Of a stretch of 64,000 nucleotides of DNA, positions 16,632 through 56,145 are shown one piece after another (positions within the stretch are counted from its first letter, which is position 1; each line of letters opens with the position of its first letter). Origin of the DNA: Bilabrum cf. latius. Its lineage: Eukaryota. The stretch spans positions 124,001 to 188,000 of the forward strand of contig OZ237737.1 in assembly GCA_965178125.1 (NCBI GenBank). The letters run 5' to 3'. The notes under the pieces were generated by a model. That model did no database searches. It was not told the DNA's origin and was given only the letters and a program-made list of their open reading frames with translations. Made by a program: the position numbers and the translations under genes.

Positions 16632-19600
16632 TTACAGCTGCGGCTGCTGGTCAGGGGCAGACTCCAGCGCATGGGCGAGGGGATTCATAGAATGCTGCTG
16701 GGCAGAGGGCTCAGCGGAAGCACCACAGTCCGAGGCATCTGCCTGGCCAGGGGAGACACTGGCTGCCACCGCAGCGTCCTCATTCACTGCTTGCGGCTCC
16801 TCTTGTTCGTTATCCGGCTGCATTTCGCGCCCGACGGACTGGCCCTCGCCCTTGTCCTCGTCCTTGTCCTTGCCTTCCTGGCCTTCCTCACCAGTAGATC
16901 TAGCCAGCATCATCGGGTTGGAAATAACGTCCTCGACCACGGATTTGCTCTCTGCAGCGCGCGCGTCCGGGCGAGCTGAAGAGCCCCCTCCGCTACCGAG
17001 TGACCTGCCAGTGGACAGCGATGACAGACCCATGCTGCCCTTTCGAACAGTCTCCCCGGCCTTGCGGCCACCCAGGAGAGAGCGCATGGAACGGCGGGAA
17101 GCCAGCCCCGCGGCGAGCCCCTGCACCGTGGCACCACTCCTGGGAGCTTGCTGGCTGAACTTGAGCTTGAAAGAGCTCGTCGTGGCCGGTCCAGGGCTGC
17201 TGGTGGGCGTCCCAGCGGCAGCAGTGCCAGCCGCGCCTCGGCGCCGTCGGCCTGTTGCACCCAGCCGCACTGCATTGGATCCAGTGGCGGCGGATCCTGC
17301 CGCTTTAGCCATCTCCACCTGCTGCTCCCTCAGTCTCTCCTTGAGGTGTCCCACGGAGCTGTGCAGGCTGCGCATCCACAGGCGGACGGCAGGCCACGAC
17401 TGCTGAGAAGGAGGGTGGTCCATATCCAGCATCTTGTCCACGGTTGTGCTGCCAGCCACTCCCAATGCGCCGCTACCTGCTGTGTCAGAGCCAGCGCGCT
17501 GCATGGCTTGCATCATCAGCGGGTTGCTGGCCATCTCAAGATCATCCTCGCCGTCTGCGTGCAGCATCTCGGCGCCCTTCTTGCCGCCCTTACCGCTCTT
17601 GGCGACGTCGTGGGCCTTGGCCCGCTCAGCGATGGACTTGCAGCACCCGCACGACTGCAGCGTAGCAGCAGCATGCTCAGGAGCAACGCCAAAGTATATA
17701 TCCAGAGCCAGCACGATCAGGGCGTACATCACGATGACCACGAGGATGAAGACCGTGGTCCACGTGATGGCGTCGTACTCGCTCTGATAGTAGTCGATCT
17801 GGTCGGGGTCGAATCGGCTCGAGGCCAGCATGACGGCGGCGAGGCATACGAGGATACCGCAGCCCAGCAGGAAGGCCTCGACCTGGTTGTAGTCCAGCAA
17901 GTACTTGACGATCTGCTCGCCGACCGTGTGCGAAGACTTGCGAGAGTCGAGGAGTGCGTCCACCTTGTGCGTCCTCTTGTAGTTCTTCTCCAGCATAGCC
18001 TGGATCTCGGACTCGATCCGGGCATGCTCGATGCTGGACAGCACTTTGACACGATGCTCGGCGATCACGCGTGAGTGGTCGCCACGAGACATGAAGGGCT
18101 CGTGGCGGATCTGCAGCACGAAGGCAGCGAACAGGGCCAGCATCAGCACGCTCATCTGGTACGTCGGGGAGACACGGAAGACGAGCGAAATCGCCGCGAT
18201 AGCAAACTTCCGCATGATGACAACGATCATCCATCCGTTGCTCCCGGGCTTGAACGGGTAGTAGAGCTGGTGCCATGCCTTGCGGAAGTGGTACAGCTTG
18301 CTCTTGTTGTCGTTGCCTGTACCTGCCGCACGCAGGATCTGGTCGTGCTTGATTGAGTTCTTGTTCGAACGGACGAACCAGAACATTGCCAGGGGCAGCA
18401 CAATGCTGTAGCTCAGGAAAGCAGCTAAACCGAAGGGGAACAGCATCAGCTGCTTGGAGCCTGGCTGCCAGCACGGGTAATCGAGCAGACCGTCCATGTA
18501 CGTCACTCCCTGTGGGTCCGGAGGAGTCGTCTGCAGGCAGCTCACGGTGCTGAGAGCAGCCTGGGTCACAAACAGGTAGCACACGCGCGACAGGATGATG
18601 AGCGAGCTGATCAGCTGCGGCGCATGGGCGTGCAGGTGCTCCTTGCCCTTGCTGGTGCAACACAGCTTATACAAGAGTCGAGCTATGTACACGACAAAGA
18701 ATAGGACAACAACGAGAACCGGTAGAAGCACAGTGGCTGCGAACTTCTGCTCGTAGGTCACATCGGGCTGGATGCACTCCGGGGCCGCGAGCTCGACGTT
18801 CAGGTTGAAGGCGGACAGGATCTGGAAGAAGCGCTCCAGGACCGGGGGCCAGCGGATGCGTGCGTTGGAGAACAGAGCCAACACCTGGAAGGTGTCAGCG
18901 CAGATCATGATCAGCACGTTCTTGATGCCCTTCCTGTTGAGGATGAAGCCAGCGGTCCCTGCCATCATGGCAGCGATTCCCATTCCCACGAAGATAAGCC
19001 ACGGCCTGTCAGGGCACTTCCTGCACTCACCACCGATCCGGTAATGCGTGCCCTTGACGCACTGCGAGCACCTTTCCGCAGTGTATCCCTCGGCGCAGGT
19101 GTTGTTCCCGACACAGGCCCACGTAGGCTCGCACGGTGCCGTGTACATGCACTGCTGCTCCCTGAGCACCGACAGCTCGTGGAACTCGTTCCTGCTCTGG
19201 TGGCAGTACCTGGTGTCCTTGTCGTCGCCACTCGTGACGTTGTAATCCAGTCTCCAGAATCCTTCGCCGCTCGTGACCAGATCCTCGTACGACTCGCCGC
19301 CGGGGCACACAGCACCGATGCGCTCCTCCTCGCAGTTCACGCAGAACTCGCCCACAAGCCCGTAAAGGTCTTTCTCGCACTGGAAGAAGACCAGCTCCTC
19401 GTACTCGTAGATGATGTAGGGCTCTGTGCGGTTTGCAGCCAGAATGGTCATGTTCTTCAGACCCACGCGGTCGCGCTGGGCCTCGCACTGCAGTAGCCCG
19501 TCGTTCAGCCACTGCGGTTCAATGCACTCCAGACCACCGATGACAATCTCCACAAGTGTCGGCTCGCCGCCGAAGTTCTTACCACGGATACGCACCTCGT

Positions 19601-22600
19601 CTCCGTCAGCGTTGGGCTCAGAGCTCTGCACGGCCATGACGATTGGGGGATCATATGCGAAGGTAGGAGGCTCCGGTGCCTCCTCAACCACGACCATGCG
19701 GGAGCCCGTATCCTCAGTCCTGTCGGGCACGTACTCGACGCGGTCATCCAAAGAGGACCTGCCGTTCACAGAGACGGTCACAGGGAGGTTGTCACCGTAA
19801 CCAGCTGGGGCACGGCACACGATCCTGAAGTGGGAATGCGAGCCTACCCTACCCGGGATCTCGTTGTCGGCAGCGAGCGGACAGTCCCACTCGCCGACGC
19901 GCACACTTACGTCACCGGCGGCGCCGAACGACTCGCCGACCAGCTCTAGGTAGAACTGGCCGATCGTGTCGTAGCACTCGGCGGGCACCTTGCGGCAGTG
20001 CCTCGTGTACGTCCCAGTGGCAGCGTCATACGTGTTAAAGCAGCGATCCACGTCCTCGCAGTCCTCCGGGTCTCGCTCGAAGTTCTTGACCCCGTGTACA
20101 CGAGGCGGGTCGAAGACCATGCTGACCCTCGGGTCGGCCTCCTCGGGCGAGTTGGCGGATGACTGCCCGCCGACCCACACCACGATGACCATGTCGTTCG
20201 ACATGTAGCTACCGCGCGGGATGGGGAAGCGCATGTGCGTGTGGTTCTGCGAGACCATGTCAGACGGTCCAACCAAGAGCGAGTCCTCGGACAGCGGGAA
20301 GCCTGGCGAGGCACCGATCGCTCGAGTGAAGCTGTCGTACTCCTGCATTCTGCGAGAGGACACGGGCTGCGTTACTTGCTGCTACTGCCCTTGACGAGGC
20401 ACAAAGAACTCAATCCAGGCGCTTCCATCGAGCCCAAAGTCAAGACCTTGGATCGTGGCATACACCTCATCTCCACTCGCGCTGTGCGAGGCGGGATCCT
20501 GCAGACGAGCCTCCTCCGAGTCGATCAGCCACGAGTACATCTCCCACATGGCATATGGATTTGATTCGATTTCGTCCGCCGAGGGCAACTAGATCCGCCT
20601 GCCGCCCGTGGGAGCCGAACGAGGCCACAGAGACTGCACCACGGGTCGGTTGTAGGCGTACCTCACGATGGGAGAGGATTCATCTGACTGCATGGAAGAA
20701 TCAATCAGCGCGCCGGCGGGTGCCTCATCCGAGATGTCGCTGGACTATCCTGCCAGCTCGACGTGCACCGGCAGGTCTCTGCCCTGTCCTGCCGGCGTGC
20801 GGCACAGCAGCGACGAGTGCTGGGCATTGGCGGTCCACGGGTCCCTCACAGGATCGATCAAGCAAGGGCGGCCCCCAATTGACACTGACAAGCTGGACTC
20901 GGCAGGCCCGCGAGGTCCGAAATTGCGGCCTGCGATACGCACCAGTGCGCCACCCGCGGTGGGCGAGGGCCCGCGTGCATCACTGGACAGGTAGCCCTCG
21001 GGCTGCCACGACGTCACAATTGGCTGTCCAAACCGCAAGCCGAAACGAGAAACAGCGAACTGATCTGAGACTGCGATGGAAAAGACTCGCACCGCACCGG
21101 CGCCTGCACCAACAACGGCCTCGATCGCATTGTGTGTGTGCAAGTGACCCATGCTGGCGTTGTGGACCACTTCCACCTCGGGCAACGCCACCAGCGGGGT
21201 GGCAAGCGCTGGCGTCCCAAAATTGAAGCCTTCGATCCGAATGCGGCAGCCGCTCGTAGGCATACCGCGGCGGGGCCTGGGCAGCGCTGGCGGCGTGCCT
21301 GTGGAGCCATCCGCCTCGAAGTCGAGCCACGCCTGCTAGTACGCCTCCGAGTCGAAGAAGCGGTCGGGGGCAAGGAGGTCGCTGCCGGCGGGCAGGCCAG
21401 GGTAGTCCTCCAGAGTGATCACGCGAGCCACCTGCGGCTTGCCGTAGGACACAGTGAGCCCGCTGTCTTCTCGGCTTGTAGCCCCAGTCACTGCGATCAG
21501 CACGACGTTACCAGCTCCAGTTCCCTCCGGCATGAGGCAGCTGAGGGTTGAGTACGTGGTGGTCTGGGTGTTGTCAGGGCAGCACGATCTACTGGAGCAC
21601 GTGCGACCGTCAGTGGGCTCCTAGCAGGGGTTCACTGCAACATTGGAGCACATACGTCCGCCGATGGTGACGTTGAGCTGGTCAAGAGGTACGCGGTTCA
21701 GGTCTGCCACGCCGAAGATCTCAAACACCATGCGGTTACCGGTGGCAGGATCAACGGCATCGGTAGGCACGTTCTCGTAGTCATTGGGCTGGTTCCTGCC
21801 ATCGAAGGAAGGGATGGGCTCGGCAAAGGTGGCCTCCTCCGATACCTGCCCCCCCACGATCACCTACACCGTGTGATCTTGCGCTGGCGGCTCAGCCGGG
21901 TCTTTGCGATACAGCAGCACGATCTCGTTGTGGTGCCAATTCCACGTATCAACGGGGAGCCCATCGATCCGCACGGACCCGCAGCCGTCCTTTCCGTTGC
22001 AGAAGTTCTCACCCTCGATGATCACACGCAGCGAAGTCTGCGCCTCGAGGCTCTCGGGGTCGATGCCGAAGTCGGTCAGGATGCGATCGGGGGCGATGTT
22101 CTTGATCTCGGGCTTGCCGAAGTCAAACAGAGCCACGTTGGACAGCGCGTTGCCAGCACCGATGGTCAAGAAGAGCTCTCGGTCCGTGCCATACCCCTCG
22201 GGTAGCGTAAACTCCACCTGATGCAGCCCACGATGCTGCACGATGCGCTCGGAGGAGACAATCGGCCTCGACAGTCCTGCCACCCACTCTTCCAACCTTC
22301 TATTCTGTGCTCCTTGCTCTTGATCAGAGGCGCTGATGTCCGTATCGTCCAATTCCGGTAGACCAAGTAGCATGATGCCTGCTTCTTCCCTGGCACCGCC
22401 GCGCCCACCCAGGCCGCTCGGTGTCAAGTGGACCCGCATGTCACTGGGAATGCCGTCAAGGTGCTAATCACCTGGCTGCAGCACCTCGATGGATCGAGCT
22501 TCCACGTTGTCCATTGTCCCGTCGACGTTGAAGCGCACATTGATGGCCGCTGCGTCCCATGCCAGACCAAGGTTTGTGCCAGTGACTAGCACCAGCTATT

Positions 22601-25600
22601 CGCCGTTCGTCCTGCCAGAGATCGGGTTCACGCCCAGAACTCGGGGCGGGGCATACCGGGTCACAGCGATGGACGGCTAGCTGGCCTATCCACCCACATG
22701 CACAATCCATTTCATGGCCTATCCCGGAGGACCTGGCACAGTGAGGCACCGCAGTGTGAAGTGGTCCTCGTAGATAGAGCAGTTCAGCGCGGTGAAGCCG
22801 GTGCCTGCAGGCCCGTACGTCACCTCCTCCAAGTGCTCTGCAACGGAGAAGTTCATACCATGAATCAAGACCCAGTCGCCACCATCTGTGCTCAGTTCAT
22901 TGACGGGCAAGCTGCCCGACTCGCTCTCGAAGCTGGAGATGTGCGGCGGCGAGTAGGACGTTGTGGGGCTCACGCTTTGCAGTCTATCAACAGTCATGCG
23001 CCACCTGAGGCCTTCACCGGCGCCCACGGCGGTCAGGCATCGAACCACTTCGTGCGCCTGGAGCACAAAGCAGTTGGATGCATGGAACTGAACGCCGAGC
23101 TCTTCGCTGCCATAGACGGCGCGATCCACTGGCGTGCTGATGGGACCGAAGTTCCTGCCTTCGATGTCCACAACCTAAGAGCCGTTCGTGTATGCGAGAC
23201 GAGAGCCTGGCCCATCGTACAGCGAAATAACCGGCGGGTGGTAGCTGGACATTGCCGTCTCCTGGGGGCCAGATGTCTGGCCACCGACCGATGCAGCCCA
23301 CACCAGCTGATCTCCGCTGCCCTCGGCTACCTTGCACTCGATCTGAATATGTGCCACAACCACACGGCATTTTACTGCTGTAAAGTACGGCCAAGTACGG
23401 CCATGTGTGTCGTTCAGACGCCCGTATGCCGCCGTTGGTACAACAGCAGCGTTATTGACCTGAACACCATCGGAAGAGGTCGGTGTGACTGGTCCGAAGA
23501 AATCACCGTTCAGCAGGATTGGCACGTCTCCGACCGTGGGTGCGTTCACGGCGCCTGGCCCGCTCACGCTCTTGAGCACAGGTGCGCTGTACCTCGTGGT
23601 ATCAGCACTGGCAGCACTGGCCAAACCAGCCACAGCGACTCGCCATCTGTGGCCCATGCCAGTACCAGCAGAAGGCTCGCACACCATCACGCGGTGAGCA
23701 CGATCATCTGGCACCCTGCACACCAGGGCCTGGTAGACGAAGCCATCGTTGCCCTCGATTGCAGCCCGCTAGTCGGCGATCAGCTCCAGTGAGTCGGGGG
23801 CAGCACCAGCAGCGTCCACTCCGGCAGCATCGCCAGCGACGTAACTCGCCGAGTAGTAGGCTAGGACGTACTGAGGGCCCAGCCCAGCAGGGCCCATGTT
23901 TGCGCCCTCGATGGTGATGAGGCCAGCATCAGAGCCACCACGCGTGTCGAGAGGTTGGACCCCCATTGCAGGCGCAGACTCGTTGAGCAGCGGCATGCGA
24001 ACTGCCGTGATGGACGGACGCATGTACCTCAGAGTCGTGTTGGAGAACTCAGCGGAGCGTTGTTGACCCACATCCACGGTCAGCACGAAGCTGTGACCCG
24101 CACCTGGCACCACATTGCACCTGATCTCAGTGTGAGCCACCGATACCTGGCATCCGGTTGTCTCGAGGTTGAGGGTAGCAGCACCATCGGCGCGAGCCAT
24201 CACGGAGCTCTGCGCGCCGTACCGCAGGCGATGTGCAGGCATAGCATCACGAGCGGCCTAGGGCAGGTCACTGCCAATGGGACCAAGGTCCTTGCCGGTA
24301 AGCACAATGGCGTAGTCGCCGGAAGTGCCGACAGAGCCACCCTCAGTCGGCAGAACTCCATCGTTAGAACCGTCGGCTGGCCCAAAGCTGGACGTCACCG
24401 CGGTGATGGCAGGCGGAAAGTATCCAGACATGCGCAATCTCTGCAATGGCAGCAGCGCGCCAGTCTCAGGGTTCCTGTCAGCGATGGCAGCATCCGCACT
24501 ACCGGCCAGCACACGAGATGACACGTTCTGAAGCGAGTTCGCCACCTGATCTCCGTTCACTGTCACGATCCAGAAGTGGTCCCGGCCATATCCCTCGGGT
24601 ATCGCGCACTGGATCCTCGTGTTGGCTTCCACGACCAGGCAGCCAGTCGCGGCGAATTCAGTGCCGCTGGGTCCGAAGGTTGCAGACACAGTTGTGGGGT
24701 TAGCTCCGCCAGCACTGGACCCTCCCTCTGCTGCAAGCCGGCGCGCCGTTTTGCCAAAAGAAGCTCCCCAGATCTCCACCACGCCCCCACCTCGCGTGGT
24801 AAAGAGCGAGTCGAGCTCTCCGTGAGTCTAACCGTACATGGCGCGGCCCTCGCTGCCCGCAGCCGAGACGCCCACCTCAGCACCGAGACCGCTTCTCTAA
24901 GAAGATTCGGTGACGTGGATCGAGGTGATGGCGACGTCGTTGTCGTTGAGAACCTCCACCCTGACAGTTGTGTTTACTATGATCGGAGGCGCCTCCAGGT
25001 CAGAGTCCTGCACCACGACCACCACGTCAAAACCCGCCTGGTCCTCCCAGTCCAGGCGAGCCCCTGAGGCAAGCCTGAGGTTGCCGCTGTCGTCAATGGC
25101 GAAGAACGAAGAAGATGGGGCGTTCGGGTCGAGCGAGAATTGCATGCGACCCCATGCACCGCTGTCCTCGTCAGTTGCCACGACTCTGCCAACAATGACT
25201 CCCTCTGCCGTGAGTTCACGTACCTGAAGAGGCTCCCCTGCGGCCAAGGCTGTCCCGTCGGGACGCTCGATCCTCCGGAACACGCTCGGCTCGTTCTTGT
25301 CCTCCACGATCAGGCGTACCGTTGCAACATCCGTGTTGTCCGCAGAGTCGGTCGCAACCAGCTGTAGCACGTACTCGGCCTGAGCCTCGTGGTCAAGGGC
25401 CATGCGCAGCTGCACTTGCTCCGGATTCACGTCCGTTGGACTGAACGACAGCATGGACTGGGCCTACGATGCGGTGCTTCCGCCCCACGAGTAGCTCAGT
25501 CCCTCGCCAAACTGGTCAGCAGCATCCTCATCTGCAGCTCGGAGGGCCCCGTGCAGCGATCCTCGCACAGTGGTGCCCTGGACTTCGCCCTCAATCACCC

Positions 25601-28600
25601 GCAGCACATATGCAGAATCCACGGACTGTCCCTAGTCGAAAACTGGGTCCTCCTGCAGATCTGTAAGGGTGATCCTGACGGTCCGAGAGGCGGAAAGTGG
25701 CGTTGTGGGGTGGCTGTCAGTTGCCGTAACGATGGCCTCATACACATTGAACCTTCCGTTTCTAGGGCCCTCGAAGTCCACTCCACCCTCAGCTGCAGCC
25801 ACCTTGATGCGAGCTGTACCCACACCATCCGGGCCAGCACCTTCAACGGTCTCGATCTCGAAGGGGAACGGCCTGTTGACGTTGGGCCCACCCGGGCGAA
25901 GCGAGTACGTAAGCTTCTGGCCCTCGCTGCCATCAGCATCTGCGCCCATGACGATGCCGACCGGCGTACCCACGGCCGTGTTCTCCGCGAGGGAAAACGC
26001 GAAGGGTCCCGTGATGCTGGGCGGGAAGTTCTTGTCGACGACCTCGATCTCGACCCGGGTCACGAACGTGAGCTGAGGGCCGTCAATGCCTGCGTCAGTC
26101 ACCGACACGTTCAGCACATGCACAGGACCTGGGCCGTTCATGGGGTACACCAGCGCGCTTGTGGAGTTATCAACGACTTGAATCTGACCAGATGATGCAT
26201 CGATCGAGAATGTGTCGTCTGGGTTGGTCCTCAGGGACCACGTGTGGGTCTCACGCACGCCCGGTGCCATGAGGTCCTGGTCCCTGAGGTACTCCTGGGC
26301 GAGGGGGGGACCGACTTGGGTCGTGGTCTTGGCAGGGACGTACAGCCGAGGGATTGGCAGGAGTTCTGGCCTCTCGTTCCTGTTTGTCAGGCTAACGATG
26401 GCCCGGCATTGCCCCACCAGCCCGGCTGCGTCTGTCGCATTGATGGTCAAGTCGTATTCCTGCCTAGTCTCCAGGTCAAGCGAATCAGTCGCGACTTCGA
26501 TGAGTCCAGTAGCGGCTGCGATTGCAAAGGGCGAGACATCTCCGGCATCAGTGGCGGGCTGCCTCGCGATGCTCCACGTCAGCACATCGCCTTCGTCCAC
26601 GTCCCCTCCGCCCATCGTGCCGACCTCCTGGCCCTGAGGAGAGTTCTCGGCCACATCGAACACGGCATCCGTGCACCACGGTGCCTCGTTCTCGTCCAGA
26701 ACAAGCACTGTGACCGTCTCTTGATGCGTCAGGCGGTCCTCGATGCCATCCGCCGTGGCTCCCGAGTCGCGCACCCGCACCACCAACTCGAATCGGTCTA
26801 CTGCCTCGTGGTTCAGCTTGCTGGGGTCCGCCACGAAGATCTGACCAGAGCCAGTGTTTATATCAAAGGCACCGCTGGAGTCACCCCCAAGGACTTCGAA
26901 CTGAAGCTTGCCATCGGCCGTGGTGCCGTCCTCCGGGTCAGTCGCGTTGAGCGCGCCTCCCAGTACGGGGGCGCGCAGAGACGCCAGCTCGCCGATGCGG
27001 AGCTCCTGGGACGCCAAGAGGTTGGGCTTCTCGTTCGTGTCGAGCAGCTTGATCGTGATATTGACGTAGGCGCTCAGGCTAGGATCACCTCCGTCGTACG
27101 CCCGCACCAGCAGCACGTGCTCCGGTTTGGTCTCGTAGTCTAGGGCACTGGCACCTGCTTGCGTGAGCTGGATGGTGGCCCCGGTCTCTCCTTCGCCCAC
27201 CAGCTTGAACAAATCGTCCGGATCTCCGTCTTCGATGGCCCAGAACACCTTGCCTTCATCGCCAGCATCTTCATCGGCAGCTGAAAGCGCCACCCCGATC
27301 TACTCGTCGGCCTGGCGCGGTGTGCGCGGTGCATTCTCAGCGATGGTTAACGTCTGCTCCTCCGCAATCGGGGGCTCGTTCACATTCGTCACACGCACAT
27401 GCACATGCGCCTCTGCCTATAGCGCCTGCTCCCCCCGGCCGCCCTGGTCACTGACCCTGACGATGAGCTCGAACTGGTTGGCATCGCTGGACTCGTAGTT
27501 GAGCAACCCGCGGTCACCCCTCGCCACGCGCACCTGCCCGGTGAGCGGCTCGATCATGAAGACCTTGCGCGAGTCGCCTGCCACGATCGAGTACGTGAGG
27601 TTGTACCAGCCAGCCACGGTCTTGCCGACGATGTCCTCGTCATAGCCCTGCAGAGGGGACCCCACGGGCTCTCCCACGGGGGAGTTTTCCACCACCTCCA
27701 CCGTGGAACCGGTGAGCGAGGGGCGGTCGTTGACATCTAGAATCTCAATCTCAGTCGTGGCCTGGGTGCATAGCTAGGGGCGCCCGGTATCGCACACCTA
27801 GATGCGGGCCGTGTAGTTGCGCGTGGTTTCGAAATCAAGTAGAGTACCAGAGGCCACCTGGATCTGCCCGCTACACCTGTTGATCGTGAACAGTCCATCG
27901 GCTGAGCCGCCAACGATCGTGTAGATGAGATCTTGCCCAAAATCAGGATCATAGGCGGGGATCTCTGCCCCCACAGCGTCAGGAAATCCTGCATCCTCCC
28001 TGACCTCGCGCACCTGGTCCCAAACGATGGGAGGTTCGTTCACATCCAGCACCTGGAAGGTGACCTTGGTCTCGTCCTTGAGACCGCCTCCGTCGGTGAC
28101 CCGAAGGGTGGCGTCGTACCGGTTCTTGAACTCGAAGTCCAGCATGCCATCCGCAGCCACAGTCACCACGCCAGTCTCGTTGTTGATCGAGAAGATCGTG
28201 GTGGCGTTGGGAAAGTTCGATAGGCCGACCAGCTCGTACGACAGCGTGCCCCAGTCCTGGGGGTGCACCTCGGAGTCCGGATCCGAGGCGCGGAATGCTA
28301 CGCCCCCGCCCACCGGGCTGCCCGTGTCGGAGTTTTCCGCAACGGTGAGGACCTGTCCATTTGGAACGGTTGGGCGCTCGTTGACGTCCTCTACCATTAC
28401 CATGAACTGTGCAGTCTGAGACAGAGCTGGGTCCCCACTGTCCGTCACTGTGACCGTGAGCTGGTACGACGTGCCGTCCTCAAATGAGAGATACCCGCTG
28501 GCCTTGAGGCGCACCTGCCTATCCGTGCGACCGACCACGAACAGCTCAGAGGACCCTGCCAGATTGTTGGCTGTTCCCAGGGAGTACAATAGAGTCTGAT

Positions 28601-31600
28601 GAGCAAACAAGTCTGGATCAACTGCTGCGGCGAGCGTGCCAGCCAGGGTATCGACGGCAGAGTTCTCCTCGATGGTGAAGCAGCCTACCATCCCGACGGC
28701 CCCATTGCTGCACGTGACCGTGGACGGCCAGGTGGGCCTCTCGTTCTTGTCCCTGAAGGCGATCATGATGGTGCCGAAATCGGTGAGACCCTTGGGGTTG
28801 AGGTCGCCCACGTTGTTGTCCGTGACCTTCACCTCGAAGCCGAGGAACTGCTGCGTCTCGTAGTCTCCAGCGGTAGCCATGCTAATTGCGCCAGATCCGC
28901 CGACGAGCGCAATCCGCGAACCCACCGCATCTCTGCTCTCTGACGGCTCGAAACACACGCTCGTGAACCGAGTGCCCGCAAACGCAGACTTCATCAAGAC
29001 TTCCCGCACATCCAGCTTGGCGGTCGAGCTGTCCGTGGCACTGGCCACGATCTTGCTGCAGGCAGTCCCCGGCTCGTTGTCGGCTCGCAGCCCGATGGAC
29101 AGGGCGCCCGTCTGCCGGTTGGCAGTGGCGCACAGGTTGGCCAAAGTCCCGGTCTCGCCCGTCTCGCCTGTCACCACGTCCACCAGAGCGATGCCTGCGC
29201 CCGAGTTGGCGATGGCGCGGGTCACCAGGTCTGCGCACGAGCCATCGGACTCGCACCTGCGGATGCAGGCCTGGTTGCGACTGGACCCACAGCCCACCTC
29301 GAACTCGTACCTCGCTGCCGCGTTGGTCCCCGATCCTCCCACTCGCATAGCAAGCAGAGAAGAGCCCCTGGATGCAAGCCGGAACGTGGCAGTGACCTCG
29401 GCCTGCGAAGAGGCCGCATGCAGCCGAGCGCCACGCACTGCCACGAGAGTGTTGACCTCCTGGCTGGTCACCGTGTGCGCCCAGCAGTACTTGTCAGTCC
29501 TGGACAGAGCAAAGGCGTGTCCCTGGCCCACGTCCTCGTCGATGGCTGCTGCGGTCGTGACCTGCGCGTTGACGACGTTCTCATCTGTGGCAGCAGATAT
29601 ATCCTTTCCGAAGGGAGCGTCGTTGCCGTTCGACACAAGGACGGTGAGCTTGCCCGTGTCCTTGAGGCCTCCGTTGTCCTCTGCCTGGATCGTCAGCTGG
29701 TAGCTGCTCGTGTCTTCAAAGTTCAGCTTCGTCGCATCGGCGATCGTGATGTTTCCAGCGTGGGCATCGATTGCAAACGCACCGGCGGTGTTGCCCTCAG
29801 TGATCGAGTACGCAATGGAGTCGCCGGCATCCACGTCAATTCCCGCCACCTGTCCTCCAAAGGTCCCACTCGCATCATTCTCGTTAAATTCGAAGGTTCC
29901 CAAGTTGTTCTCTAGCTCAGGGGCCTCATTGACGTCCGTGATCGTGATTTCTGCATTGCAGGTCCCTTTGAGTCGGCCGGCGCCGTCATCCTCAACCTGT
30001 ACCGTGAGGTTGAACACGCCCCTGGTCTCATGGTCCAGCACCGCCTTGGCTAGGGAGATCTTGCCGTTTGTGGCTCCGATCTGGAATGTAGAATCCACAT
30101 TGTCCCCGACAATGGACCAACGGTGCTTGTCGCCGGTGTCGCGGTCTGACACCTGGAGCCCTGTCGAAGGTGTGGTTGCGGTGCCCACCGGCGAGTTCTC
30201 TGCAATCGTGAAGGCCTGAAAGAAGCATCTTGGCTTGAAATTTGAATCTGTGACCCGCAGCGTGACTTGTACAGACGCCGACAGGCCGCCCCCGTCGGTC
30301 GCAGTCACCGTGACCCGGGTGGCTCCAGTCGATGTGGGTTGCTCATTGAGCCAAACGGTACCACCCTGAGACATTCGAAACATGCTACCAGTGTATGACC
30401 ACGTGAACAGCACGGCATCACCGTCGGGATCAGACGCCGTGATCGTGCCAATCTCGGTCCCATTGCCATACTGCTCTGAGATCGAGAGCTCCTGGGATGC
30501 AATCGTCGGCTGCTCGTTAGCATTCGTCACGATGACAGTGACGGCCGCGGTATGACTGAGCGAGTCCTCGTCAGTCACTTTGACCTCGAACACGAACTGG
30601 CTGGCAGACTCGAAATCGGGAGAGAACCCAGGTGCCAGTGTGAGGGATCCGGCATTCGAGATGCGGAAATTGCGGGCAGCGGAGGACTGCACGAGACTGA
30701 AGGCCAGCTGCGTCGAGTCCTCGTCAAGTGTCTGCACCGAACCGATGCTGCCGATGCTAGCATGCGAATTCTCCTCCACTGCAAACGTCTGACCAGACAT
30801 CACCACTGGCGGTTCTGGCTGGTTCCGCACGTTGATCGTATACGTGGCGATGTCGGACAGCCCGAAGCTATCCGTCACTTTGACAGAAAGGCTGTGCCTG
30901 GACTCCGCTTCGTGATCGAGGGCCCGAACCAGGCTCAGCACACCGGCCGTAGACATCTTGAAGAGGCCTTCATCGTTGCCTCCTTCGATCGAAAAGAAGA
31001 ACGTCTGCCCCTCCACACCGTCGGGGTCGGAGAGTCCAGACGACAGCGCGGGCGCAATGATTGCGTCCGCGTCGTTCTCGTCCACAGTGGCGCTCATATC
31101 GCTCAGCACAGGGGCCTCGTTGACGTCGTCGACCTTCACGGTCACCGTGCCTTCTCCGCTCTTGGCGGTCGTGTGTCCCGTGATGCCGCTGTCGGTGGCC
31201 CGCACGACCAGACTGTACAATTCCCTAGTCTCGTGATCGAGCGCCTTGCCAGGCGCCAGGGTGACTGCGCCGGTGCTGCTGTCGATGGCAAAAGCAAACC
31301 CAACATTCCCACTCACAATAGAAAACTGCAACGTGCTGATAACATCCTCATCGTCAGCCTGTACCGTGCCAGCCGCGTCTCCAGGGCTCGCGTCTTCCGC
31401 CAGAAACAGGATCTGATGCTCGACTAGCGCCGGGGCATCATTCCTGTTGATAGTCGTCACGGTGGCAGCCTGCTCTGCACAGAACTCGGCGTCGCACGCC
31501 TTGATGCGGAACGAACGCACCTGCAGCTCGGGCTCCTCGAAGTTGAAGTGCAACGGCTTGGCCACGGTAAGAGCCCCGGTGCGCGCGTCGATCGCGATCG

Positions 31601-34474
31601 CGGCCTGGTCGTCACCCAGGATCGAGTAGGTGAGCCTGTCGCCATCGGGATCCACCCCACCGGCAGACGACGGCCGGAAGGCGCCACCTACGCCCGCATC
31701 CTCGTAAACTTCGAATGAGTAGTCTCCGGCGGGAGGGAACGTGGGTGCCTCGTTCCGGTTTGCCACGGTGACCCGCACGGTAGTCTCAGTGGACATCGCC
31801 GGGGCCCCAGTGTCTGTCGCCCGAACGCGGAGCGTGTACGAGTTTGTCCCTTCGTGGTCCAGCGGTTTGGTCGTGTAGATCTGCCCGGAGCAGGAGCCGA
31901 TCCGGAAGCTGTTCCCCAAGTTGCCGCTGACGATGGCGTACTGGAGCTCCTGTCCGCGATCGGGGTCGGTCGCGGTGATGGGCAGCCCTGCCTGCGTGTC
32001 TGTGGGCATGTCTTCCTGCACGACCCTGCTGTAAGAGGAGGAGCCAAAGGAGGGTCGCTCGTTCACGTCCTTGGTTTCGATGTCCATCGTGCATGTAGAC
32101 GCGTCTGCGCCCCGCCAGCGGTAGGCCACCACAACCTTGTAGCCCGTGCACCGCTCGGCAGACAGGCCGCTCGAGATGGAGCTCTTGAGACGGACGCGTC
32201 CGTCACTCAGAACCTCGTACGGGGCGGAATGAGTGCATCCGCTCGCATCCGGAAACCTGGTCTGGGAGGCGATCCTGTAGGCGCCCCCACTGAGCCCGTC
32301 GAGGTTCACACGAACAGCCACGGCGCTCCGGGCGTTCTCGTTCACGTGCGCCCTGCGCGTGCCGCTTGCGCTGCACACGCTATCGATCCACCCGAATAGC
32401 GGAGTCTTGACTCCACCCGTGCACGAGTGTGCCAGGGGGCAGTCGCACGCGTGTGTGCGTCGGTCTGCGTTCGATAGAGTGGGCTCTTGCCCCGGGATGC
32501 AGCTGAACTTCCCCGCAGGGACGGTCAGCGGGCTCCCTCGACCGCTGGGACAGTAGTACTTCTAGTCCCCGCACCTCCGTGGGCACGACGACGTGGATCC
32601 AGCAGGGCAGTAGCACCCGGCCTGGCACTGTCCGGAGCAATCGCTGGACCTGTATCCGCCCGTTCCTGACCGCCACCTCCCAGCAGGGCACGCATGCCGG
32701 ATGCCAGAGACGCAGTAGTGGCCGGCAGGGCATCTCGTCGCGCCAGTGCGGGGAGTGCTGCTGCTGGTGTCGGGGGAGGCATACCACCCCTGCCCGGGGA
32801 CCCGCTGGTGGATGCAGTCGTGCCCCGTGTTGGGGCAGTACCTGCCAGGCCCGCACGCCCTGTGGCCCCGACTGGTAGTGGCCCCTGCGTTGCCGCAGTA
32901 ACCGCGTGCCACGGCTCCCGGGCAGGTACTCGACCCTGACCCGCCTGATGAGTACCTGCCTGGTCGACAGAGCCTCCCCGAGGGCCGGTTGGTCGTGGAC
33001 CCGGAGGGGCAGTAGTAGCCTGCAGCACACGCCCCCGTGCACGTGGACGATCGCTGGATGGTGGAGCTGCCGTATCGGCCGGCAGGACACGGCTGCCTGG
33101 TGCTGGCTCCGGTGCTGCTCACATAGTGGCCCGTTCCCGACACGCGGCAGCTCGTCTGTCGGTTGCTGGGCTGGTAGTACCCCGAGGAGCACCGCGTGCA
33201 TGCCCTTGCCCTGCTCCACCCGGATCGGAAGTGGCCCCGTCCGCAGTCTAGGCACCGATTCGAGTTATCTGCGGCATGAGTAGGGCGACGTGGGGCTTAA
33301 CAAATGCCTCGAGACACTAGGTTGGTGCAGAGGCATCGGTGGCTTCGGCAATCGCGACGGGGTGCTAGGGGAGTGCTCACAGTGATGGTATTTTGCGCTG
33401 GGGCACTGCCAATAGACGTAAACACTGACTGCGGTTATAGAGAGATCGCAATTCAAGGCCAGGGACCTGTCGTAGGCAATCCTCATGTTGGATGCCGATG
33501 CCTCTGTGTGATGATGATACCAGCGCATGAGCACAGATGAATCAAGAATCTTGGAGTCTCACATCCAGTACTTCCCCTGTGTCCGCGGCAACCCCTGAGA
33601 AAATAAAGTTGTTCGTGATACTTCAGAGGCGCTCAAACACGGTGCATCAGATCCAGTTTCAAACAAGTTTACGAATCGTGAGGCTGCAACTAGATGCACC
33701 GCAGGCCGAGAGCCTTTCTTGCGGCAACAAAGGCGAACTGAATCTTACCAGAAATTACACCTGTAGTCGTGCCTGTTACTTCTAAAGTATACCCCAAAGA
33801 TGGAACCGGTGAACTCCCCATTACGTGGCTTCGACGAGGAGCGGCCCGTACCACAGTACCTTGTCGAACTGAAGGAAGAGCTTGTAGTTCGAAGCTACAC
33901 GTAATCAGTTCTGCACGATGATGACGACGTCAGCTCAAAGTAGTCCCAGCTATACCAAATGCGCGAGCCAGTCGGTGCGTACGTATCTGCGGGTGAACAA
34001 AGTGGTCAAAGGCTTGTTGCATAGTGCGAATCTGAGACTTTTAAGCTGATGTTATTAGAAAGAGATATATTTTGATTATCTGACACCAGTAACAGCTGCG
34101 CAACTGCCTGCGATAGTAAGATATTGAGAACTGGGCGTCCACAACAGGAGCGAATGGACGTATGATTCCACATTCGCAGCTTTGTGGTAGACTTTGAGTC
34201 ACCAGATATTTGAAAAAAAGGCCACTCACGAGTATCTAGACGATCGTGGAGTCCCGTCCGTGAATCTGCGGAGCGAGCGTTCGACCAGGATGGAGAAAAT
34301 AAGGTACTTGCGCGGTGGCTGGCTCTTGCAGGGCTACCATGACCTTATCCTGCCTTACCTGGTCCAACCGGTCGAGCGAATATGGTAAGAACGTGTTCCT
34401 GAACAGTTACCTTGTGCACGGTAACAGACTAAGCTGGCCAAGCATGCAAATATTGCCACCGCTGGAATCCGCAT
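16632..34474 (-). CDS. giant cell-surface cadherin-domain protein (~5,709 aa): signal peptide, CUB, Cys-rich repeats, ~20 cadherin repeats, multiple IPT/TIG repeats, 9 TM helices (nonagonal-cadherin-like)
   Basis: Fifteen ORF fragments from 33143 to 16632 lie in one frame and are separated only by TAG. LDHE/LDYE, DxD and DVNExP cadherin motifs, G.NFG IPT motifs and nine hydrophobic segments are present. Six upstream exons are inferred (34474-34359, 34265-34230, 34107-34085, 33986-33749, 33594-33563, 33428-33381), followed by a 16.6-kb exon 33268-16632. TAA stop. Confidence 0.85.
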
Positions 34475-35030: not shown

Positions 35031-37475
<2,445 letters not shown>

Positions 37476-37591
37476 GGCTGTAATGGACCACTCATTTGAG
37501 AAATGAGTTGATTCGCTGCGATTCGCCAGCGAACTTCCGGAAAGAGCTTGTGGACACGCTTAATTTTTTTTTACAGACTACCCGGCAAGTA

Positions 37592-38579
37592 ATGGCTCGC
37601 TCAGCACCTACAGGGAAGCGATAGTACTTCGTGCAAGCGATTCAGTGCTTGTCTCGAGAGGTAAGTGCCTCTCACACCTTGTCGCCACACTCACAATAGG
37701 TCGCAGCTGCAGTGTTTTCGCCGTCTTGGTTGCACCTCAAAACACGTCGTCGCAGAACGACATTCTGTTCGAGTGGTAGAGCCCCGACCTTGACGAAAGC
37801 GCCGCCGACGGCGTACAAGCAGCACTTGAAATCGCGTTGGATACCATCGAAGAGAAGAGTGAGGAGATCCACCTGCAGCACGCCGGGGCAAGAAATCGCG
37901 ACGATCACTCATTAGTCCAAGTGTTTAATTTAGTTGCTCGATTGCAGTCGGAGGCGGTCATGGGCCAACGTTAGAACGTGCAAAGGGGGACCCGTACCTT
38001 GGGCTGCTAGCCACAGCAGATGGCACCCGGGTGTACGGCCGAGCGGGGAGCACGAGGACAGTGCTTGTCGCAGCCAAGGACGCAAACATTGATGCAAAGC
38101 TGATGAGAGACGTAAGATAGCGATTACTGCATGCGCAATCGTCTCGACACCCTGAGAGGTGCACAGCAACGACACGCCAGGCAAGAAGCTGGCAAGAAGC
38201 TGGCAAATATAAATACTTGCAAAAGCATGCCATCAATTACCGCCCACCCCCCCATTCCACCCTTCATCCCACCATGCAGTGCACGGACGCCATCCACGTG
38301 GCATACGTGGAGGCCCTCTGCAATCCTTTCCTCTCGAGTGGCGGCGTCATGCTCGCACCCCCACTGGCAACCGGCTCACCATCTCCCGCCGATCCCAGCA
38401 GATCTACTGGCGGCGATGGCAGCGCCACTGGAATCGAGGGATCTAAGCTGCTGCGCCAGCGAATCGCAGCCATAGCCGCACTGACCGCCCCGGGGTCTTC
38501 GCTATCCGGCGGTAGGGCGGTAGGGTCGAACGGCAGCTCAGGGCCTGGGTCACCAGGGCCCAGGGCCAGGGGGCGATGA
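37592..38579 (+). CDS. TRAPPC2L: sedlin-family TRAPP complex subunit (TRAPPC2L-like), three introns
   Basis: Spliced product includes 'ALDTIEEK', 'DPYLGLLATADGTRVYG' and 'IHVAYVEALCNPF'. GTAAG/GTGAG...GCAG introns. Two in-frame TAGs in exons 1-2. TGA stop. Confidence 0.75.
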
Positions 38580-39104
38580 CGATGACGACTGCTGGCCGGT
38601 GCGGCAATAGATATAGGCCAATCGGCAAGGCTAGTCCCAGCCCCAGCCCCAGCGCGGTAGACTTGCATCTGATCTGGAACGTTCCAGGACCGCCCCGCAA
38701 CAATGGCACCGCTGGCAGTGGCATGCACGCAGGCGCTGGTGCTCTGGCCACTGGCATGCGAGACGCTCAGTGCATGGCGCAGCGACGATGCATCCGTCAT
38801 TCTTGCAGGTAACTCCATGGCTGCAGCGGCGATCCCCCATTGGCAACTGGAGAGAGCGAGCACACGCCTCGCAGGCAGTGGGCGCCTGCCCGAAATGCGC
38901 CCTTACCGCGCCAACCGAGCCGCCGAATTGGACGAGGCGCGATATAGGAACTTGGGCAGCGCCTATCGACCGGGTTCTTCCACAGGAATCTGGTGCTGGG
39001 CAGCTCTGAACGAGAAAAGTAGACTCGGGTCGGAAGGCGGCGGCTTGGGGCAGTACTTGCGGGCTGTGCTTCCCGGATGCAGCGAGCTTGAGGACGGCGC
39101 ATCA

Positions 39105-39609
39105 TCAATTTTCATTCCACCGATGCCCGCACTTCGTGCACTTGTAGAAAGTGGTCGACGGCTCGTCAGCCGACCGAATCTAAATCTGCATGTAGTACGC
39201 TCGTCCGTTATGACACTCGGAACACCTTGCTGCGAATCGAAACCACAGAATCCTAGAAGCATAGTGTACGGTTCGTAACAGATATGGCCTTGTAGCGCTA
39301 ATCCTACGGATTTCTCACCATCGGTCTGGTCGACGTTCTTCCATGCATCGGCCCCTCCTAGGACATCATCGACCTTCTTTGCCTCCAGTACCACTGTTTT
39401 CTCCACTTTCATGCCCCCAATAAGTTTCTGGTGATATGGACAGGCCGTGCAGCAGTAGCTAGACACTTCCTGTGATGTTAAAAATATGCGCGGTGAGCAG
39501 GGTTATCGCTGGTGCATCAGGTAGCGGCGACTGCAAGTCACAGTAAGCCCGCAGCACTCACATGATGGGCCACGACCAATAGATTTCCGCACCAGGGGCA
39601 GAACAGCAT
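39105..39609 (-). CDS. POLR3K: RNA polymerase III subunit RPC10 (C11), 107 aa; exons 39609-39562, 39469-39319, 39229-39105
   Basis: MLFCPWCGNLL...CTACPY...VDDVLGGADAWKNVDQT...CSECHNGRAYYMQI*IRSADEPSTTFYKCTKCGHRWNEN, then TGA. The * is TAG 39180-39182. Confidence 0.95.
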
Positions 39610-39734
39610 CGTGGACTGGCGACGGAGTGGGCTCTGGTCACGGAGCTGCCGGAGGGCCTCTCCTTGCGGAACCGGCAGTGTGGATCGATCCGGCCTTGAG
39701 AATGCAGGGGCTCAATCGTTAGTCTCGGCGAAGA

Positions 39735-41467
39735 ATGGAGGATTTTGTCGAAGATGTCAATGCTCGACTCGATTCACTCAAGTGAGGCATCCTAGCGGTG
39801 GCATCACGAGCTGTGCCATGCCTAGGACTAGTGCAACCACTCCGTTAGTGCAACTCTCCTCGCATCGCAGTTTGAAGTCTTCACCACAAATTGCCCTGAA
39901 AGATGTTATTCATTTCACGGATACGTATAGGGTTGCGGTGTAGGCATGCATACAAGAGGTGAGACACTGTGCAGCCCTCCTGGGCCCTGGTTTGCAGCAT
40001 GCATCGCTCATTTGGACTGCGCACCAAACACTCTTGCCGTGGCACACGCAGCTGCGGAGGTATTGGACCAAAACATCTCACAAGTCGATTGTAGCCCCGG
40101 AGCCATTCAGGAGGGCAGCATTTCTGGACACGATTCGAAGGTGTGGGGCTCACCTGCCCTCCTCGGCCCAGGCGAGCGCGATGGCTCCAGCAAGCGCAGG
40201 CAGCGGCACTAGCGGCGGAGCGGCTCTGATCAATCTATCGGCACTCTAGTTCTTGGTTTCAGAGCTGCAATTTGCTCAGCTGGAAGCGCTCCGGTCGGCT
40301 CCAGCCGCCGCCGCACTAGACGGACCTGTTGCTCCAGCCGCGCCACCTGCCGCCTCTGCCGGTGCTAGTACTCAGGCTGGCAGCGTTGCAGGCACCGCGC
40401 CCGCTGGATAGACTTCCTCATCTTCTTCCGCCGCATCATCCTCATCATCATCATCAGCAGCAGCAGCCCATACTACTCGGGCTGCCGAGCCTGCACCAGC
40501 CATTGGAGCCGAGGCTCCCGCCCCGTCCGTGACGGCTATTGATTTGCTCGCTGCAGACCTGGCGTTGTTGCAGGTGGCCATGGATGATGCTGGGGTGCCA
40601 CAGTCAGGAATTGGGGGACCTTTTGCGACTGGAGCAGGGGCAGGTGCAGGGCATGCAAGTGCAGGAGCAGGCGCCGCTCGCATGACCGACGAGGAGAGCG
40701 GTGTTGGAGACGAGGAATTGCACCCGATTGGTGCGGAACTATAGAATGCACGGCGCCGGCTTGAATCTGCCCTGGCCGCCGGTGCATCGCAGGCCGCCGC
40801 AGATGACGGTTCACCCGCCCCAGCCGGTGCGCCCATCCTCTCAGCTGAGCCATTCGCCGCCGCTGGAGGCCCGCTCAGAGAGGCAGGAGAGCGGCTCGCG
40901 CGAGCCATGGACGCAGACTATGCGGCCCGTGAGGCGCTGATGACCAGCCGGTTGGACGTGACTGTGACTGCACTGCTGTGGGGGGAGGGGGCCAGGGGGC
41001 GCGAGAGGGCTGTGACGAGTGCGCTGCTGGGGGCGCGGAGGGCCATGGAGCTGCCGCGGCTGGCCGTGGGGCTGGACCAGGCCCTTGGTGTGACGAGTGC
41101 GCTCCCCATGGAGCTGGGCAGGCGTGTCAGCGCGGGGACATCGTCGTCTGGTGGGCGGGGCGGCGGCGCTGGCTCGGCCATCAAGCGAGTGGTAGTGCAG
41201 TCGATGCCTGACCGGGGGGGTAGGGCGGGTGAGATGCGGCCGAGTCGCAGAGACATGATGCCCAAGTGGGCTCCGAGGAGGGAGGGCGGCGGGAGCGGCA
41301 GGGGCAGGGGTGGTGGTGGTGGTCGAGGTGGGGGGCGAGGTGGTGGTCGAGGTGGGGGGCGGGGTGGCAAGGGTAGAGGAGGCGGGAGGGGCGGGAAGGT
41401 GCAGGGGTCCTGGACAGGCATGTCGGGTGCAGGAGGAAAGGGCAAGGGCAAGAGCAGGCGAAAATGA
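39735..41467 (+). CDS. FAM98: FAM98-family protein with C-terminal RGG tail; 5' exons approximate
   Basis: 'DYAAREALMTSRLDVTVTALLW' and 'MPDRGGRAGEMRP...MPKWAPR' followed by RGG repeats. Fragments share a frame and join through TAG 40247 and 40742. TGA stop. Confidence 0.75.
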
Positions 41468-41677
41468 AGGGTGGGCCAAAGCATTTCGTTGTTGCCAGTG
41501 ACTTGCGAATTGCGAACCATATCCTTAGCAGACGCAGACAGTGCGGCCACTTGTCAAGAGATGATGCTGTGCAGGCAAGTAGTACCAGCCTATTGACCAA
41601 GTCAGTCTGAGCACTCGCCAGAGCCACACGACAGGCACCCAAGAAAACTGGCAGACAGGCAGGCAGGCAGGACACAT

Positions 41678-41745
41678 GGCCCTGGGTGTTTGGTTGTTCC
41701 CCAGCACCGGCCCTGGGTGTTTGGTTGTTCCCCAGCACCGGCCCT
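41678..41745. repeat. 31-bp tandem duplication between convergent gene ends
   Basis: GGCCCTGGGTGTTTGGTTGTTCCCCAGCACC twice, plus a partial third copy (GGCCCT). Confidence 0.9.
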
Positions 41746-43484: not shown

Positions 43485-43794
43485 CACAGTAAACTTAGGG
43501 CAAAGGCGAGCGTACGGATTACCGAGCGCACAGGAAAAGCGAGTGCTGCCAAAGTGGAGTGGGATTTGACCCGATCCCGACCACTCCAGGTGCCTTCGTG
43601 AAGGTTCGTTACACCGTCAGAGCTCCTTCGGCTCCGACGCGTTTTGAAACAAAACGAATCGTATTGCAGAGTCGTATTGCACTGCATGCAGGCCCCAACT
43701 GACCTCTCCCAGGCCAGTTGCCACCGGACCGCTCCACGGTGGGGTGCCACCACTGGCAGCTAGCCTCGCTATCATTTGCTCACCTCACCTCGCC

Positions 43795-44858
43795 TCACTG
43801 CCTGCCCTCGGCCTCCCTTGCCCTGGCCTCGCCAGCCTCCTCCCCTCCCCCGGTGCGGTTCAACTCCTGCTGCTCCTTCTCCAGGAAGCGCAGGGAGGAG
43901 TCCTCCACGACCTTCTCCGCGTCCAGGTAGGCAGACCCCCCGGGCAGGAACTCGTGCTGGTGCTCCTGGGCCAGGTCAGCAGCGGCCTCGGCGCCCTCCT
44001 CCAGCTCGGCCATCTCGGTGGCAGTCAGCTTGCGCACGAACTGCGCGGGGTTACCCGCCCACACCTCCCCCTTGGGGACTCTCCTGCCGGGGTGCACCAC
44101 GGCGCCGTCCGCCACCACGCCGAACTCCTCCACCAGCGCGCCCTCCATCACGACCGCCCCCGCGCCCACCTTGGCTCTGTTCTCGATGGTGCATGACTGC
44201 AGCACCGCCCCGGGGCCCACCACGACGTAGTCCCCGATGCGGCAGGTCGCCGCCACCTGGCCCTCGACCGTCTTGGCCGTGTGCACCACCGCTCGGTCCT
44301 GGATGGACGTGTACCCGCCGATCTCCACGGCATTCAAATCACCGCGGACGACTGCGCCGTACCAAACGGATGATCGTGTACCTACCTAGACGCTACCAAT
44401 GACTGACGCGCACGGCGCAATAAACACATCGGCATCGACGAACGGATGCTTGTTGAACAGATTCATGACGCTCCTATGCCGGCTGACTGCGATAATTTAT
44501 GATAAACGTGGATACAAAGAGCGCGAGTTCGAGTGCACAGGCCCCGCTTTCGTCCCCGTACAAGGCTGCAGTTGCTCGGGAGTGGCACAACCGAGGGCGA
44601 AGCTGGCCGCAACGGCGGAAGGAGCCGGCGACGGCGTAGCTCGCGCCCAATCAAATGCTATCATCAATAAGCAATACATTGCGCCGCCATCTCGGTAGTC
44701 AATCCAGCTGACGCCAAGGTGGTCTCAGCTACGATCTGCTCACAAGCTTCCCTAAAGATAGGCTTCTCCAGCGCAGCAAGGCCAACTCCGTCGAGGTTCA
44801 ACCCCGCTTCTCGCAAGACACGGCCAAACTCGTACAACCCCCTGCGAAATACGCTCAT
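43795..44858 (-). CDS. mitochondrial complex I gamma-carbonic anhydrase-like subunit, one intron
   Basis: 'GRVLREAG..LD', 'SRHRSVMN', 'FIAPCASVIGSV*VG..SSVWYGAVVRGDLN', IQDR and WAGNPA motifs. TAG at 44386-44388. TGA stop. Confidence 0.9.
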
Positions 44859-45032
44859 GGTGCGAGCGAGACAGGCAGCAGTGCGTCTCGAAGCCGACCT
44901 CGCTGCTGCCTGCCCGAAAAAAATCGAATTCAATCTGCACAGTACAATTACGATATAGGGTGCAGTTACACTTATTCGGATTCCTGGTGAGATCGCGAAT
45001 GGCAAGTGCTACTGCTAGAGCGCTCTTGTGCT

Positions 45033-50921: not shown

Positions 50922-51014
50922 TTTTTCAATGTGAGCGAGAACTATATGATTTCACCAAGACGATTAAAATAATGTACTTCATATGGTTATTATAATTAAA
51001 GGCCTACATTACGT

Positions 51015-51086
51015 TCCGTAATGGTGTAATGGTTAGCATATCTGGCTCTCACTCAGGTAATCCGGGTTCAATTCCCGGTTACGGAA
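51015..51086 (+). tRNA. tRNA-Glu, anticodon CTC
   Basis: Acceptor stem TCCGTAA/TTACGGA, D-arm TGGTGTAATGGTTAGCA, anticodon arm TCTGG-CTCTCAC-TCAGG, T-loop GGTTCAATTCC, followed by an oligo-T Pol III terminator. Confidence 0.95.
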
Positions 51087-51490
51087 ATTTTTTTCCCATG
51101 GTGCAGCATTAATTTTGCCCCGTGCATTGGACAACAGCACTGCGGCACTGATAGCATCATATCACATCACGATGCCTTCTCGAGTTGGCCCGGAGGGAAC
51201 AAATGACCACTGTGCGACCGCCAACCCTGCCACCTGAAACACGAAACCGATGATGCCAGTTGACTGAGTCGAGTGGGGAGTGCGGCGGCGCTCTGGCGGT
51301 GTCGCAAGAAGCGCAAGGACACGCAGGTATCAGTCTTCTTGCCGCAAACGGTGCAGCTACCCTACAGAAGTCAAACGCAGCCGGCAGGCCCGCCAAGGCC
51401 AGGAACGGCTCATGAATGTCAGTGGCAAATTCGCCAGAAGTGCAAGACGATCGAAATGTCCACATTCAGAATTGCACCCACAGATCCCGA

Positions 51491-56015: not shown

Positions 56016-56145
56016 GGCGCAGCTGCAGGTACCGAGAATGATTTGGCCCGACGTGTCGCGGTAAGGTGCTAAATGAATATATAAGAGTTTTCGCAGACGT
56101 TGCAGCACGCGGTCACTCAGCCTCTGGTCAGGATCACCTGGGACA

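Follow-up and report, generated by a model that had tools for sequence, protein, structure and literature searches.

An RPC10 gene with an in-frame TAG

The window, the whole 64,000-nucleotide stretch of Bilabrum cf. latius DNA analysed here, carries at 39105-39609 on its minus strand a three-exon gene whose spliced model is a 324-nt coding sequence of 107 codons followed by TGA (Table 1). An initial inspection of the letters alone (the sequence-only reading) had given these coordinates, the codons around an internal TAG and a spliced product of 107 amino acids, all of which proved correct against the sequence and the spliced gene model, and had taken the product for a TFIIS-type zinc-ribbon subunit of RNA polymerase III. 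Homology searches lead to the same assignment. Exon 3 matches the Pfam family Zn_ribbon_TFIIS (PF01096) at 4.3e-21 over its residues 1-37, and its best matches among solved structures are RPC10 chains, with E-values of 4.1e-14 (yeast) and 4.2e-13 (human), against about 1e-8 for TFIIS, 3.5e-8 for RPA12 and 1.5e-5 or weaker for RPB9-type chains. By these PDB E-values the gene is nearer to RPC10 than to RPA12, RPB9 or TFIIS.

The predicted N-terminal ribbon, of the RNA-polymerase-M type, shows CPWC and CTAC, in exons 1 and 2; the ribbon of exon 3 holds four cysteines, in the pairs CSEC and CTKC; and the acidic hairpin, IRSADE, follows directly on TAG. Full-length homologues align across all three exons (tblastn), and exon 2 queried by itself matched no Pfam family. 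With RPC10/Rpc11 (C11) of RNA polymerase III the protein shares its length of about 107 residues and a C-terminal TFIIS-type ribbon with Q-x-R-S-A-D-E, and the predicted N-terminal CxxC...CxxC ribbon would be a further feature in common. As a protein it is no different; what is unusual is the codon for the conserved Gln alone.

On the minus strand, exon 3 reads ...TAC TAC ATG CAG ATT TAG ATT CGG TCG GCT GAC GAG... Judged from the translation, a protein that stopped at codon 83 would lack R85-E89 together with C97 and C100, the second CxxC pair; this loss of the acidic hairpin and two Zn ligands had been pointed out at the outset. The C-termini of homologues stop at the same place as the TGA of this gene (PDB matches). 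No second ribbon of this type was found within the window by tblastn with full-length homologues, and a word-indexed search of the collection's proteins of 71-2000 aa returned none more than 81% identical to exon 3, which argues, weakly, against a TAG-free copy among the predicted proteins.

Table 1. Features of the window discussed in the text, in window positions.
Feature	Position	Strand	Description and basis
RPC10 exon 1	39562..39609	minus	16 codons; ATG at 39609-39607; first CxxC of N-terminal ribbon; translation, tblastn with full-length homologues
RPC10 exon 1/exon 2 splice joint	39468/9 to 39561/2	minus	Present in contigs of runs X5 and X6
RPC10 intron 1	39470..39561	minus	92 nt, GT..AG, GTGAGT...TCACAG
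RPC10 exon 2	39319..39469	minus	Linker with VDDVLGG motif; translation, tblastn; X6 piece 39319-39468 with 0 differences
RPC10 intron 2	39230..39318	minus	89 nt, GT..AG, GTGAGA...TCGCAG; joint 39229 to 39319 in X5 and X6
RPC10 exon 3	39105..39229	minus	C-terminal TFIIS-type zinc ribbon, acidic hairpin and TGA stop; Pfam, PDB
RPC10 in-frame TAG, codon 83	39180..39182	minus	Position of near-invariant Gln in Q-x-R-S-A-D-E
RPC10 terminator	39102..39107	minus	TGA, directly followed by a second in-frame TGA
Cadherin/TIG open frame	16632..33296	minus	5,554 codons; 21 cadherin and at least 8 IPT/TIG repeats, C-terminal membrane part; 23 TAGs, no TAA or TGA, ends in TAA
Gamma-carbonic-anhydrase-like (gamma-CA) codon 37 (gene 43795-44496)	44386..44388	minus	TAG in window, CAG in relative L001
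Gamma-CA codon 80	44257..44259	minus	CAG in window, TAG in L001
Gamma-CA codon 209	43870..43872	minus	CAG in window, TAG in L001
AP-4 epsilon codon	45559..45561	plus	CAG in window, TAG in L001
tRNA-Glu(CTC)	51014..51087		Sole tRNA gene in window

TAG is kept in spliced RPC10 transcripts

Logan contigs of four runs were mapped to 36500-44000. One contig of run X1 is unspliced: it covers 36559-41707 without a joint and with 0 differences, and keeps the TAG. Contigs of two other runs, X5 and X6, from two studies, leave out exactly 39230-39318 and 39470-39561, and their pieces over 38280-39229 also have 0 differences, the TAG being kept in the spliced contigs. That X5 and X6 are RNA is deduced from the splice joints, the run records labelling it as a guess. 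The same contigs hold spliced exons of a convergent plus-strand neighbour, which shows that their source is RNA rather than a processed DNA copy. With the introns removed and 0 differences, the RPC10 transcript reads TAG: at 39180-39182, where the sequence-only reading had proposed an RNA check, there is neither a CAG nor a splice across the codon, at the level of contigs, which cannot show minority variants. RNA-derived contigs that cover the DUF2465 and desaturase genes likewise retain their TAGs.

Since pseudogenes are usually recognised by a lone in-frame stop, this RPC10 copy might be supposed to be one, or its TAG to be an assembly error, to be edited in the RNA or to be spliced out. Such explanations are scarcely credible here. 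Runs of two studies show the gene's transcripts correctly spliced and with the TAG unchanged, and the DNA contig of X1 agrees; 62 further in-frame TAGs are found in 11 other genes; and L001, the contig of a relative described below, carries in-frame TAGs as well.

The mapping brought out two other features of the region. Over 37658-39229, one RNA-derived contig joins the spliced plus-strand neighbour (joints 37658/37754, 37858/37948 and 38111/38280) to spliced RPC10, so that the 3' ends of the two convergent genes seem to overlap or meet; no Pfam family matched the neighbour. At 42136-42141, in the desaturase gene, X1, X5 and X6 have alternative contigs with a paired one-base insertion and one-base deletion, which is probably an allele, because the frame is kept.

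TAG stands at the position of a near-invariant glutamine

A search of 1.84 billion representatives was made with an RPC10 query that carried X in place of the TAG codon, so that this column could not bias the matches, of which there were 1,686. Among the best 150 of these, the column holds Q in 148 and S in one (P0276, a match in two stretches), the remaining one being unaligned there; the commonest motifs in the same 150 are QTRSADE (64) and QIRSADE (63). Longer relatives found in a word-indexed search, whose query itself carried Q, have Q in 52 of 52 cases. Aligned to solved structures, the TAG falls on the Gln of yeast and human RPC10, of archaeal TFS and of TFIIS. The claim that the column is a near-invariant Gln holds in a search in which the query was neutral at this site. 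The RPC10 codon had also been singled out as the most diagnostic site for the residue, and it is indeed the sole TAG of the window at a strongly conserved column.

In-frame TAGs are frequent in the window

RPC10 is one of many genes concerned. The 17 frames of 15 genes in the window comprise 15,694 codons, among them 63 TAG, 560 CAG and 105 CAA, and in 12 of the 15 genes one or more TAGs stand in frame. Internal TAA and TGA are absent from all 15, and the frames end with TGA in 14 cases and TAA in one. That neither TAA nor TGA is found internally is in part circular, these two codons having been used to delimit the frames, and some frames include 5' extensions which are perhaps untranslated, so that a few of the 63 TAGs may be outside coding sequence. 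Circularity notwithstanding, the absence is meaningful in view of the 5,554-codon frame and of the domain-complete enzymes. If TAA too were read as Gln, about 12 in-frame occurrences would be expected at the CAA:CAG ratio of 105:560; none was seen.

Nor are the TAGs confined to one kind of gene. When TAA and TGA alone are taken as stops, long frames open up in the window. A frame of 1,878 codons holds 18 of them, and genes that carry TAG and are complete in their domains include those for a 4-hydroxybutyrate CoA-transferase, an acyl-CoA synthetase, a cytochrome-b5 desaturase, AP-4 epsilon, and PP2A B''-type, PNPOx-domain, thioredoxin-domain and gamma-carbonic-anhydrase-like (gamma-CA) proteins; Pfam domains extend across in-frame TAGs. 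The largest frame, for a cadherin/TIG protein, lacks a Met close to its beginning and is bounded upstream by the in-frame TAA of 33297-33299, beyond which the sequence is rich in stops; the gene would have to start in an upstream exon. The window is GC-rich, at 0.53-0.71 in 2-kb windows along it. Long dipeptide repeats, (PA)n, (GQ)n and (GA)n, are present inside the coding frames of otherwise conserved proteins (e.g. 35031-37559, 45112-48831 and 56077-61713).

TAG might nevertheless be ambiguous, meaning Gln inside genes and serving elsewhere as a context-dependent stop. Such a code would be compatible with a Gln at RPC10 codon 83, and context-dependent stop/sense codes are known in ciliates, according to the account in 10.1101/2022.04.12.488043. 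We regard it as unlikely for this organism. Frames whose C-terminus is defined by homology end in TGA, and the base 3' of in-frame TAG (G in 22 cases, C in 18, A in 16, T in 7) resembles that after CAG, which indicates no special read-through context. At none of the 15 gene ends is TAG needed as terminator; this is a small sample, too small in itself to decide against dual use.

TAG and CAG exchange between the window and a close relative

Scanning metagenome contigs with the AP-4 epsilon alignment yielded L001, a contig of 3,373 nt whose protein is 92% identical over 457 residues. It is syntenic with 43171-46632 of the window, the start of the desaturase gene, gamma-CA and AP-4 epsilon being in the same order, and is about 79-82% identical in nucleotides over the coding parts, with three in-frame TAGs of its own. 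The two sequences give 679 codon pairs, of which 348 are identical codons; where TAG is not involved, the same residue is encoded in 617 of 675 pairs (91%). With residues conserved to this degree, the codon opposite a TAG would usually be expected to specify the same amino acid. TAG occurs in four pairs, in the window in one and in L001 in three, and its partner is CAG every time (Table 1). CAG makes up 3.5% of codons, and four such pairings by chance are therefore very unlikely. These exchanges confirm Gln independently of the RPC10 column, and they show that a second, related organism, the source of L001, also reads TAG as sense. The collection's own protein entry for gamma-CA is a 164-residue piece in which the TAG site is uncovered, a truncation by standard-code gene calling.

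Other, more distant relatives were compared in AP-4 epsilon. The frames of L002, L003, L005 and L080 (57-62% identity) contain no TAG; this says little on their code, because the AP-4 epsilon of the window has one TAG. In L009 (50% identity), at residue 317 of the AP-4 epsilon query, an in-frame TAG is aligned to a Tyr invariant in alignment A1, which could reflect another code variant, a sequencing error or a splice artefact.

Which amino acid TAG encodes

A sense codon need not mean Gln. TAG could encode another residue (Leu, Glu, Ser, Lys, Tyr or Trp, as reassigned codes elsewhere have it) whose substitution RPC10 tolerates, and codes with UAG as Leu and UAG as Ser are among those described in PMC11687900. 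Two of the TAG sites in the window do not by themselves point to Gln: the gamma-CA column varies among 120 homologues (D 27, E 20, T 15, L 14, Q 9, A 7, S 7, gap 6, R 3 and others), and opposite the TAG of the CoA-transferase four solved chains have R, L, E and L. Both sites are variable and uninformative on the residue.

A profile of the giant cadherin/TIG protein built from its own repeats, 21 cadherin and 8 TIG units, was tried as a test of the residue. It put Ala, Asp, Arg, Ser and Gly, in that order of log-odds, above Gln, an order which could be taken to favour another residue; the test is uninformative, since no TAG falls in a strongly conserved column. An apparent match of TAG to Glu in the last repeat unit of the same protein lies within an unalignable flank and was discarded. 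A Gln codon adjoins TAG in 11 of the 63 cases, the highest figure of 59 codons, in a test of low power, because Gln codons themselves cluster weakly (about 11%).

Against another residue stand the RPC10 column, with Q in 148 of the best 150 of 1,686 matches and in all 52 longer relatives, and the orthologous partner of TAG, which is CAG in 4 of 4 pairs at 91% residue conservation. Taken with this evidence, a residue other than Gln is very improbable, and the Gln of the sequence-only reading is upheld on two counts, by the RPC10 column and by the exchanges with L001.

Affinities of the organism

Every named protein among the best 120 matches of AP-4 epsilon is from a stramenopile, at 49-56% identity, while the top matches, none of them among these named ones, reach 57-62%; oomycetes, brown algae, Phaeothamnion, Rhizochromulina, Spumella, Nitzschia and a pelagophyte are represented. 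A FastTree tree was made from 52 rows, namely the window and 51 of the 120 matches (16 oomycetes, 9 ochrophytes and 26 others), with 69 left out. In this tree of one gene, unrooted and without outgroup, the window falls in a cluster of 12 rows with an SH-like support of 99, apart from the oomycete and ochrophyte clusters, and none of the 16 oomycetes or 9 ochrophytes is in it. Named matches of gamma-CA form a more mixed set, with a dinoflagellate transcriptome at 59%, oomycetes at 48-49% and a brown alga at 51%.

Discussion

The observations are best explained by a nuclear code that uses TAG as a regular sense codon for Gln and keeps TAA and TGA as stops, the pattern of NCBI table 15; we put the probability of this reading at roughly 0.9. 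TAG in the DNA and in spliced RNA, the in-frame TAGs throughout the window, the Gln column of RPC10 and the interchange of TAG with CAG support it directly. Codon 83 of RPC10 would then be translated as the conserved Gln before the R-S-A-D-E acidic hairpin, and the outcome would be a complete subunit of 107 residues with both zinc ribbons. If other reassigned codes are a guide, TAG would be decoded by a tRNA-Gln with anticodon CUA, and eRF1 would no longer recognise UAG; neither a tRNA with a CUA anticodon nor an eRF1 gene was seen within the window.

Codes of this kind have been described. UAG is Gln, with UAA and UGA as stops, in the fornicate Iotanema spirale (PMC5304391), and UAG alone is Gln in Protocruzia tuzeti and two phyllopharyngean ciliate lineages, as given in PMC11687900. 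These share with the present case the use of TAG alone as a sense codon, for Gln, while TAA and TGA terminate. They differ from it in lineage and composition, the nearest named relatives here being stramenopiles and the DNA GC-rich. The main terminator differs as well: TGA here, at 14 of 15 ends, but UAA in I. spirale, where it is named as the primary stop (PMC5304391).

The codes in which both UAA and UAG are Gln (UAR, table 6 type), listed in PMC11687900 for ulvophycean green algae, hexamitin diplomonads, Streblomastix, Amoeboaphelidium and many ciliates, have in common with ours the capture by glutamine of a stop that is one transition away from CAG or CAA. They differ in that TAA is no sense codon here: against an expectation of about 12 it occurs in frame 0 times, and it terminates one gene. 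With the UAG = Leu codes of the rhizarian exLh and some ciliate MAGs, and the UAG = Ser code of the green alga Scotinosphaera (PMC11687900), the window shares the decoupling of UAG from UAA; the residue differs, the evidence here pointing to Gln.

Codes of this kind are known already; the present lineage appears to be an addition to those in which TAG alone is Gln. In the full-text literature searched, the code was found in a fornicate and in ciliates only, and neither that literature nor a 2024 stramenopile overview yielded a nuclear code of the sort for a stramenopile; the search covers subscription journals thinly and leaves absence unproven. We give about even odds to a more specific proposal: that the window represents an undescribed, independent origin of a UAG-only Gln code, with TGA as the main stop, in a GC-rich, stramenopile-related lineage which lies outside the oomycete and ochrophyte clusters of the AP-4 epsilon tree and includes at least two related taxa, the organism of the window and the source of L001.

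The finding bears first on gene prediction. Prediction with the standard code would break 12 of the window's 15 examined genes into fragments, and annotation of Bilabrum cf. latius and its relatives needs a code of the table 15 type. It bears also on how codes change. Among the codes set out in PMC11687900, reassignment of UAG only is rare, being found in one fornicate, a few ciliate lineages, one rhizarian (as Leu) and one green alga (as Ser). A further lineage would be a test case for the capture of a stop codon in a GC-rich genome, in which TAG is not expected to be a rare stop, so that the case, if true, sits badly with simple scenarios of codon disappearance. The lineage is apparently in culture, with RNA data from several studies, and would be a new natural system in which to study how UAG and UAA are told apart by eRF1 and tRNA-Gln.
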